The notes beneath the pieces were generated by a model. That model worked only from the letters and a program-made list of their open reading frames with translations. It made no database searches and had not been told where the DNA came from. The translations under genes were made by a program, and so were the position numbers. 64,000 nucleotides of DNA from a virus, in UHGV virus genome UHGV-0070660; one strand, 5' to 3'. This document shows positions 58,368 through 59,052 of the stretch, in pieces; positions within the stretch are counted from its first letter, which is position 1; every line of letters begins with the position of its first letter.

Positions 58368-59035
58368 ACTTGCCGGGTACGTCTCCGGCGAGGGCTTCCA
58401 CCTCCGTATGCTTTTCGGCGCACCGCGCCCTGGCTGCAATTCGGTAACAGGGGATGCACAACCCTGGCTTCCAGCGTGATTAGCGCCTTCAGCATGACGG
58501 GATATACCCGTAAATTCGTGGAACTGTACCCAAAGTGCTGTTAAGCACCGCTGTTACGCTGAAAAGAAGACGCAACAGGAAAGGACGCTGACCAACAGAT
58601 GGCCCCTTCTCGTTCATCTGGTTAATCACACCAGCGCCCTTACCTGTTGTGCCTCCCCGTTCCCTAATACACAGACGGGGACACTCTGCGGTCGATTTTT
58701 TGACGGGGGACGACTCATACCCCGTGGCGTCTGGCTTCTTAGGCCGCTACCATCATCAGATCATCGTTTGCATTTACTTTAATGGTCAGTTTCTAAACCG
58801 CCGCAAAGTCGCTAACCATGACGAAAACCCTGAAAAAAACGCCCACCCGAAGATGGGCAAACTGGAAGCTCGTAACGCACTTCGGTGTTGCCACTTAGGC
58901 GTATGGTCAACCTGGCAACTCGGCGTCATGAGGGGGAAGGAGTCACTACCCCGCCATACTTGCCGCCGCGCCTGTCGCGGCTAACAGCTAAATCGCTCTA
59001 TAAATCACGATTCATTGAGGCGATATTACACTAAT

Positions 59036-59052
59036 AAATTTATTAGAGCAAT
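59036..59052 (-). promoter_or_regulatory. C1 operator (perfect 17/17) with overlapping partial reverse site
   Basis: AAATTTATTAGAGCAAT on minus strand; 15/17 plus-strand site at 59026-59042; overlaps dmt stop. Confidence 0.7.

Follow-up and report, generated by a model that had tools for sequence, protein, structure and literature searches.

Positions 58368-59052 of a 64,000-nucleotide DNA from the virus genome UHGV-0070660 (the whole DNA is called the window below) lie between the dmt gene and two tRNA genes of a P1/P7-like phage. They hold an operator and promoter controlled by the repressor C1 and, behind these, a chain of conserved RNA elements. One link of this chain very probably belongs to a real and conserved family of RNAs resembling transfer-messenger RNA (tmRNA), present here as a tag template with pseudoknots and an antisense domain against host tmRNA in place of the tRNA-like head. 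Coordinates are those of the window, and features lie on its minus strand unless stated otherwise.

The C1-controlled start of the ban operon

From 58000 to 59400, the window is 97-98% identical to the P1-like phages RCS47, JL22, P1 and P7, and within this region the part at 58830-59000 shows 100% identity to P7 and 88% to P1. The records of P1 (AF234172) and P7 (AF503408) share the local gene order hrdC, dmt, trnA (Asn), trnT (Thr), tciABC, trnI and ban, with all genes from hrdC to ban on one strand, which is the minus strand of the window. The dmt open reading frame (ORF; 59043-61466), whose C-terminal codons just upstream of the operator differ from the P1 reference, ends with a TAA at 59043-59045. 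Downstream, tRNA-Asn(GTT) (58292-58367) and tRNA-Thr(TGT) (58214-58289) are the first annotated genes of the ban operon, and the P1 record implies that more than 2 kb of mostly untranslated RNA genes must be transcribed to reach ban.

The end of dmt overlaps a C1 operator, Op72a or Oban-a (59036-59052), which matches the consensus ATTGCTCTAATAAATTT at 17 of 17 positions and holds the dmt stop codon as well as most of the -35 element of the promoter P1ban. A second, inverted operator on the plus strand, Op72b or Oban-b (59025-59041; 15/17), overlaps the first by 6 bp and covers part of the -10 element. An earlier note on this DNA, made from its letters and ORFs, had described this arrangement: the window's only perfect C1 site, placed across the dmt stop codon and overlapped in opposite orientation by a partial site. 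All of this was borne out, the partial site having two mismatches, with 15 sites of at most three mismatches in the window against 0.26 expected by chance. The sigma-70 promoter P1ban (59023-59051), placed by alignment transfer of the AF234172 annotation, consists of a -35 element TTGCTC (59046-59051), a 17-nt spacer and a -10 element TAATAT (59023-59028), from which transcription would start near 59016.

The same P1 record lists a ‘divalent C1-controlled operator Obanab; corresponds to former Op72ab; controls expression of ban’, the sites of which overlap the ‘sigma 70 promoter P1ban’ and a predicted P2ban, and the P7 record carries the operator and promoter annotation as in P1. The position at the dmt stop codon, upstream of trnA, trnT and ban, is the same in both phages. 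The perfect site and its partner are almost certainly the bivalent C1 operator Op72ab (Oban) over P1ban, the C1-repressed start of the ban operon. For C1 binding and repression at this site we follow the GenBank annotation and a published study in which ban is C1-controlled (PMC4713147). In that study, reverse transcription quantitative PCR (rt-qPCR) gave a maximum induction of ban below that of ref, with ssb, dmt and kilA above it (PMC4713147); the lower induction of ban would fit a terminator in the leader but is no proof of one. The 14 other C1-operator-like sites (1-3 mismatches) are spread over 10237-62733, with one mismatch each at 10237, 28751, 43222 and 62717, and presumably include the remaining known P1 operators.

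The earlier note had also called the roughly 650 nt behind the operator a long ORF-poor leader. Indeed, no minus-strand ORF of at least 60 amino acids occurs in 58368-59036, where the longest measures 45-47 amino acids, and a C1-controlled start followed by a terminator had been correctly seen. The description as a leader is nevertheless misleading, as these 650 nt are not empty but consist of conserved structured RNA elements in a chain. An alignment shows hardly any variation among P1, P7 and even D6-like plasmids from the U-tract of the terminator down to about 58368; the D6-like plasmids have a different upstream region, without the C1 operator.

A tmRNA-like module behind the terminator

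Directly after the U-tract lies a module of 176 nt (58654-58829), which we term a headless tmRNA. In E. coli, tmRNA encodes the tag ANDENYALAA and has three pseudoknots downstream of it. The module contains a tag reading frame (58739-58771) that reads GCA AAC GAT GAT CTG ATG ATG GTA GCG GCC TAA, is preceded by UAAAU and encodes ANDDLMMVAA followed by a stop. By eye, the nearest in-frame triplets upstream of the GCA resume codon include no AUG, GUG or UUG, and a Shine-Dalgarno sequence is not apparent either. A tag hairpin (58730-58760) carries the stop codon in its loop and is followed by two H-type pseudoknots, PK-A (58690-58725) and then PK-B (58654-58688). ARAGORN calls the ANDDLMMVAA tag once its threshold is lowered to 80%, and the Rfam model tmRNA_permuted aligns the tag region, scoring 24 bits in the window and, for a Klebsiella phage-plasmid (L012), 34 bits (E = 4e-5). 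Furthermore, the sequence context upstream of the resume codon, AAGUAAAUGCAAACGA, which receives a high Rfam posterior probability, and a 16-mer spanning the resume codon, AAGTAAATGCAAACGA, are common to many IMG/VR contigs with tmRNA-typical tag frames.

Comparison across the family reveals that both the frame and the folds are kept. The 27 nucleotide alleles of the tag translate into 16 peptides, all with ten codons and a stop, among them ANDDLMMVAA, ANDDVVLMAA, ANEEMYLAVA, ANDNTFLAVA, ANDEQFLAVA and ANDSEVLMAA. Their Ala-Asn start is invariant and they end with Ala; several peptides come in two to five synonymous variants, and the final Ala codon takes all four third bases. The helices of the pseudoknots, compared across 79 unique sequences, retain pairing via double changes in both PK-A and PK-B. 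For example, stem 1 of PK-B, the strands of which were located by pairing-independent anchors, occurs as CAC/GUG (44 sequences), CAG/CUG (26), CAU/AUG (7) and UGG/CCA (1), and its stem 2 as GCCC/GGGC, CCCG/CGGG, CUGA/UCAG, GGAG/CUCC or AUCC/GGAU. Likewise, PK-A shows ACGGGG/CCCCGU, GCAAGG/CCUUGU and GUGAGG/CCUCAU in stem 1, and CCGA/UCGG, GUCG/CGAC, CCAA/UUGG and CCAG/CUGG in stem 2. The compensatory base changes together with the synonymous tag changes argue for selection on structure and frame. Protein coding by the module, by comparison, was considered and rejected: a sense frame is open across the module in none of the 74 unique modules and an antisense frame in only 25 of them, and the module region matches no Pfam or PHROG family.

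Antisense complementarity to host tmRNA

The 5' domain of the module (58783-58832), about 50 nt long, is antisense to nt 56-106 of E. coli tmRNA, which comprise the 3' half of pseudoknot PK1, the resume codon and tag codons 1-6. The complementarity is organized in three blocks, namely GUUUUCGUC, which faces ssrA 96-104, GCGAC, the complement of the host GUCGC that spans the resume codon, and UUUGCGGC, whose complement GCCGCAAA lies on the 3' side of PK1. Aligned to the reverse complement of ssrA nt 53-106, each of the 45 unique 5' domains scores between 33 and 50. For the eight domains tested, shuffled sequences average about 19, none of 300 shuffles reaches the observed score, and the ssrA sense strand scores 16-20. 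Moreover, 66 of the 76 unique modules have their longest strict Watson-Crick run (8-11 nt) at one and the same place in ssrA, the recurrent run being (UA)GUUUUCGU(C) against ssrA 96-106, GACGAAAACUA, which corresponds to tag codons 3-6.

Between the domain of the window and ssrA 56-106, the predicted duplex reaches -46.3 kcal/mol (z = -3.0); for the first 36 nt, the predicted value is -36.0 against host tmRNA versus -21.2 against the module's own tag region. Nearly all members keep the motif GUUUUCG, whereas codons 3-5 of the module's tag vary and lack the complement of the motif throughout, so that the motif seems to track the host tag and not the module's own. An 11-nt linker, UUAAAGUAAAU, separates the pairing region from the phage resume codon and, by count, equals in length the distance from the end of PK1 (taken as about nt 78) to G90 in E. 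coli tmRNA. Direct sense homology of the module to E. coli ssrA was also considered and proved limited to the tag start.

Search for a tRNA-like head

With default settings, ARAGORN reports no tRNA-like domain in the window or in 119 loci of the family, and neither ARAGORN nor Rfam finds a tRNA or tRNA-like element in the 1.9-kb module locus of the virulent phage C1 (a phage name, not the repressor). Low-threshold tRNA calls within 58368-59052 are poor. The tRNA-like domain that ARAGORN proposes at the 80% threshold was rejected: its 5' strand is a covariation-supported hairpin (P4, described below), and its ‘T-arm’ is an ordinary hairpin, the loop of which differs in an IMG/VR contig (L052). 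A recurrent motif, GUUAGCUCCAC, that had been considered as a CCA end is really the 5' strand of the hairpin GCUCC-ACGAAAC-GGAGC. Finally, a phage-encoded second piece with a tRNA-like fold, as in a two-piece tmRNA, was sought; none adjoins the module in phage C1, and none with G3-U70 was found. Elements resembling tRNA nevertheless come after the module often, with a T-loop motif within 600 nt in 69 of 96 loci.

Some units in the neighborhood recall parts of tRNA or tmRNA. One that ends with GCUCC-ACGAAAC-GGAGC and is preceded by a hairpin with a covarying stem lies at 57516-57583, about 1270 nt past the module; in other phages (L173, L188, L203), the GCUCC-ACGAAAC-GGAGC unit is met again some 280 nt behind the module. 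It only resembles a tmRNA 3' end. Just past tRNA-Thr, the insert of a hairpin at 58123-58213 contains a near-perfect T-arm, GAGGGUUCGAAUCCCUA, with no free acceptor end. Similar tRNA-like oddities adjoin the module in Ackermannviridae, N4-like phages and Klebsiella phage-plasmids (L268, L266, L012).

Distribution and earlier literature

Family-specific pattern scans and BLAST place the module in 292 phage GenBank records, with carriers in Punavirus, Ackermannviridae (e.g. PhiSH19), N4-like Gamaleyavirus, T1-like phages and Deseoctovirus, lambdoid phages, and Cronobacter phage ESP2949-1; it is thereby present in five unrelated phage groups. It also occurs in 670 of 5426 complete E. coli genomes, at 582 places on plasmids and 152 on chromosomes. 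In the matches listed, the module invariably goes without annotation. A promoter-like TTGACA-17-TAGATT lies directly upstream of the module in the virulent phage C1, and in virulent phages the module appears to have its own promoter. In P1, no separate promoter motif for the module was seen by eye, so that its expression in P1-like phages would be tied to the lytic switch.

Two elements carry altered copies. In the Klebsiella plasmid pSCKLB684-mcr (L011), an IS200/IS605-type element with TnpB sits inside the module, and divergence sets in after GGUUUAG. In the contig L052 mentioned above, unrelated sequence stands in place of the 5' domain.

A survey of tmRNA genes (Hudson, Lau and Williams 2014, PMC4131195) that covered RefSeq plasmids and viruses downloaded in November 2012 found ssrA in that dataset only in mycobacteriophages and reported none for P1-like phages; it also names Bacillus phage G and mycobacteriophage DS6A from outside the dataset. 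In the literature searched, mostly without subscription journals, we found no description of a tmRNA-like RNA in the phages considered here, and an earlier description is possible; the same literature yielded no P1 transcript map of the 58368-59052 stretch. The operator, the promoter and a ‘dicF-like’ label, on the other hand, are already part of the 2004 P1 annotation.

A dicF-locus-type unit and its terminator

Upstream of the module, the first 183 nt of the predicted transcript contain a structured element and an intrinsic terminator. The element (58887-58980) consists of the hairpins P2 (58966-58980), P3 (58932-58955) and P4 (58887-58919) with a 3-bp junction helix. It is followed by a part resembling the 3' portion of a small RNA (sRNA; 58833-58886), in which 28 mostly unpaired nucleotides (58859-58886) precede the terminator hairpin GCCCAUC-UUCG-GGUGGGC (58841-58858; -11.3 kcal/mol), a G and a run of seven U (U7; 58833-58839). 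A terminator-like hairpin with a T7 run had been noticed before, and both a terminator scan and folding confirm its 7-bp G+C-rich stem and UUCG loop, with an end about 183 nt past the inferred start. Together, the hairpin and U7 are predicted to form a strong intrinsic terminator.

The ‘dicF-like region’ of the P1 record (68791-68892) corresponds to window positions 58823-58925. In a blastn comparison with the dicB operon of K-12, 58948-58972 matches at 24 of 25 positions and 58887-58919 at 30 of 33, and the matching K-12 sequence is the one immediately upstream of dicF, not DicF itself. This upstream element is found in 61 phage records and more than 100 viral contigs; in many lambdoid phages, it sits in the early-left operon, between repressor-proximal small genes and dicB. 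Its consensus fold comprises three hairpins and the junction helix, with compensatory changes at five pairs, as illustrated by GUUGCCA/UGGCAAC versus GUUGUCA/UGACAAC and by GCGGGG/CCCCC (P7 and the window) versus GCUGGG/CCCAG (P1). A variable short RNA body, which is DicF in Qin, follows the conserved element in all 32 distinct variants listed, and a hairpin with a U-run closes every variant inspected.

Membership in DicF proper was rejected, as the Rfam DicF model is unmatched, the pairing with ftsZ is not significant and only the flank is homologous. The model (RF00039) gave no match at E up to 5 in the 3.6 kb searched or at E up to 10 in 281 nt. The body of the window (58859-58886) is unrelated in sequence to DicF, though it occupies DicF's position, and the architecture of the dicF locus recurs with its conserved upstream element, RNA body, terminator and early operon. 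We infer that the unit encodes a DicF-type sRNA with its own, swapped seed, and we lean towards a short C1-controlled RNA combined with attenuation of downstream expression; the earlier note had reasonably suggested a short repressor-controlled transcript or an attenuator.

Further downstream, at 57320-57439, a sub-threshold Rfam match to the sRNA STnc100 was observed (39 bits versus a gathering score of 47); a related motif, UGGUGAAUGCGGCU(A/G)AGCGCACGCGG, also occurs after the dicF terminator in Qin and lambdoid phages.

Putative processing hairpins and a P1-specific block

The module is followed by a near-perfect hairpin of 85 nt (58569-58653) with conserved arms CACAACAGGUAAGGG and CCUUUCCUGUUGCG, a folding energy of -41.2 kcal/mol (z = -4.9) and, in the alignment, a compensatory C-G to U-A change. 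Of 96 unique loci, 70 have such an arm directly 3' of the module and 10 more have a tRNA or tRNA-like element there, which suggests that the module's 3' end is defined by RNase III and RNase P. The 85-nt hairpin is a probable double-strand processing site.

Three long hairpins (58569-58653, 58123-58213 and 57926-58006) share the arms CACAACAGGUAAGGG and CCCUUACCGUUGUG around unrelated inserts, as though several RNA cargos were strung together with RNase III-type stems between them. The 3' arm of relatives, UGCUCUUUCC, matches the first 8 nt of the rrn boxA sequence UGCUCUUUAACAA.

The rest of the stretch includes a small hairpin with a stem that is hypervariable in the alignment (58534-58549) and a block of 144 nt directly upstream of tRNA-Asn (58368-58511). 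The block is 98.6-100% conserved in P1-like phages, including D6, and confined to them; it shows no ORF support, no Rfam or protein family match and an unremarkable fold energy. Beyond the tRNAs, lambdoid phages (mEp460, Stx2c phages, IME207) match 58000-58137 at 98.5% identity, and the piece is absent from the P1 reference, which has plp in its place; this indicates mosaic exchange of non-coding modules between P1-like and lambdoid phages.

Proposed mechanism and alternative readings

On balance, we favor a reading in which the known C1 operator and promoter are followed by a DicF-type unit, a headless tmRNA, a processing hairpin and the tRNAs. In the lysogen, C1 on Op72ab would keep P1ban off, which is the known step of the scheme. 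Upon derepression, RNA polymerase would start near 59016, and some transcripts would stop at the terminator, releasing a short DicF-type RNA, with the terminator attenuating the rest. Read-through would yield the headless tmRNA, the tRNAs, tciABC, trnI and ban, with the 85-nt hairpin and the tRNA 5' ends serving as putative processing points for RNase III and RNase P. The headless tmRNA could then pair with host tmRNA, masking the host resume codon and the first tag codons, and could present a template for its own tag to the ribosomes that the host tmRNA head rescues; the host would supply the alanyl-tRNA-like head and SmpB. At the least, the module would block host tagging. This docking and tag replacement is a tentative model, possible without being probable. 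About as uncertain is its extension to a whole, previously unrecognized class of headless tmRNAs in P1-like, Vi01-like, N4-like, T1-like and lambdoid phages that would reprogram trans-translation, with ANDDLMMVAA replacing ANDENYALAA, and that in P1 would be expressed by terminator read-through from the C1-repressed ban promoter.

Several points weigh against this picture, all steps of which past the C1 control of ban we infer from the sequence. P1ban is not scored by a simple consensus promoter scan, and its start site rests on annotation. For the upstream unit, the duplex of the P1 body (58859-58886) with ftsZ is no better than with shuffles, in a test that is uninformative for authentic DicF too. 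For the module, an acceptor stem with G3-U70, a T-arm and a CCA end were not found; ARAGORN makes no default call, and the tmRNA_permuted scores of 24 and 34 bits stay below the gathering score of 47. The energy of the duplex with host tmRNA is only moderately unusual, as one of 300 dinucleotide shuffles does as well, and nt 56-78 of host tmRNA are folded in PK1, with which the pairing must compete. The tag region of tmRNA is the same in all known hosts, leaving no co-variation of the target to read, and the antisense similarity could be a relic of the module's origin. Moreover, the module is interrupted or truncated in two elements (IS/TnpB), which implies that it is dispensable for plasmid maintenance.

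The same pairing admits a simpler interpretation, namely that the module does no more than act in antisense, as an inhibitor or sponge of host tmRNA (or of SmpB or ribosomal protein S1), and would shut down trans-translation in lytic growth with its tag left undecoded. The lack of a tRNA-like domain suits this possibility, as does a significant complementarity that extends over the host resume region and the first tag codons, pairing alone being sufficient to occlude the host template. An inhibitor, however, needs no fixed ten-codon frame with synonymous changes, invariant Ala-Asn start and Ala end, nor does it need a resume context identical to that of tmRNA-type tag frames, a hairpin loop around the stop codon or a conserved pair of pseudoknots, and we consider it unlikely, if a serious contender. 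Less likely again is that the dicF-locus element and its terminator form a cis-acting switch, either a put-like processive antiterminator or an attenuator governing read-through into the untranslated RNA genes and ban, instead of the precursor of a trans-acting sRNA. Such a switch would agree with the position of the element 30-90 nt upstream of a strong terminator in the inspected variants, both P1-like and lambdoid (where dicB lies beyond), and with the more than 2 kb of largely untranslated RNA genes before ban. The 9-mer GCGCGGCGG in putL of HK022 also speaks for it, although nothing more was found to be shared when the regions downstream of HK022 PL and PR were compared. Against it, neither putL nor putR is resembled overall in sequence or structure, the downstream RNA in Qin is the known trans-acting DicF, and the body that precedes the terminator is hypervariable in the manner of sRNA seeds. 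A put-like antiterminator is retained with low weight.

The whole stretch might instead be a mere long pre-tRNA leader in which the tmRNA-like and dicF-like similarities are inert relics of recombination. The mosaic nature of P1-like genomes, exemplified by the lambdoid identity of 58000-58137, and the tolerated IS insertions in the module are in line with this view, yet near-invariance from P1 to D6-like elements, occurrence in five unrelated phage groups, one with its own promoter-like motif, and the compensatory and synonymous changes render it very improbable. We give hardly any credence to the idea that small proteins are encoded here. A plus-strand ORF of 111 amino acids (58649-58984) does exist, and JL22 and SJ46 annotate hypothetical proteins in this place; against it stand the missing Pfam and PHROG matches, the frame counts given above (sense 0/74, antisense 25/74) and the differences between P1 and P7, which preserve RNA hairpins by compensation and include a 3-nt loop indel. 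This ORF, antisense to the RNA elements, is probably spurious.

Significance

The operator, promoter and terminator are textbook P1 biology, and the value of the locus lies in the contents of its leader. In the reading favored here, the leader contains an RNA in which a tmRNA-type tag template is joined to an antisense handle for host tmRNA. This RNA goes unannotated in a classic model phage as well as in hundreds of sequenced phages and prophages of enterobacteria, both virulent and temperate, and current annotation pipelines miss the family. If the proposed docking holds true, phages would interfere with, or even rewrite, host ribosome rescue and protein tagging as a new kind of host takeover, and the host and phage parts would assemble in trans into a natural split tmRNA. 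The headless tmRNA may also bear on why some phages depend on tmRNA, and existing P1 genetics allow direct testing.

Comparison with known systems

The control region corresponds to Op72ab and P1ban of P1 and P7, with the same operator sequences, arrangement, overlap with the -35 and -10 elements and position, and without substantive difference. Behind it, the first unit resembles the dicF locus of Qin and lambdoid phages, which likewise comprises a structured element of about 95 nt, a short body and a terminator in a repressor-controlled early operon. The two differ in what comes after the terminator, which is dicB in the dicF locus and the tmRNA-like module in the window. The put RNA of HK022 is comparable to the P1 element in being a structured RNA shortly past an early repressor-controlled promoter and before terminators, but has no convincing similarity to it in sequence or fold.

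The module shares with bacterial tmRNA, in its one-piece and two-piece (permuted) forms, the resume context, a GCA resume codon without a start codon, a ten-residue AN(D/E)...(A/V)A tag, a stop codon in a hairpin loop as in helix 5, and downstream pseudoknots. Bacterial tmRNA, in contrast, has an acceptor stem, a T-arm and a CCA end, whereas the module lacks these and has only two pseudoknots; the tRNA-like 5' half and PK1 are replaced in the module by sequence antisense to host tmRNA nt 56-106. Previously known phage tmRNAs, those of the mycobacteriophage Bxz1 group and of Bacillus phage G, are complete, whereas the module is headless, comprising the template and pseudoknots. The RNA of mycobacteriophage DS6A, a tRNA-like domain alone, represents a partial tmRNA kept by a phage (PMC4131195), to which the P1 module forms the complementary part.

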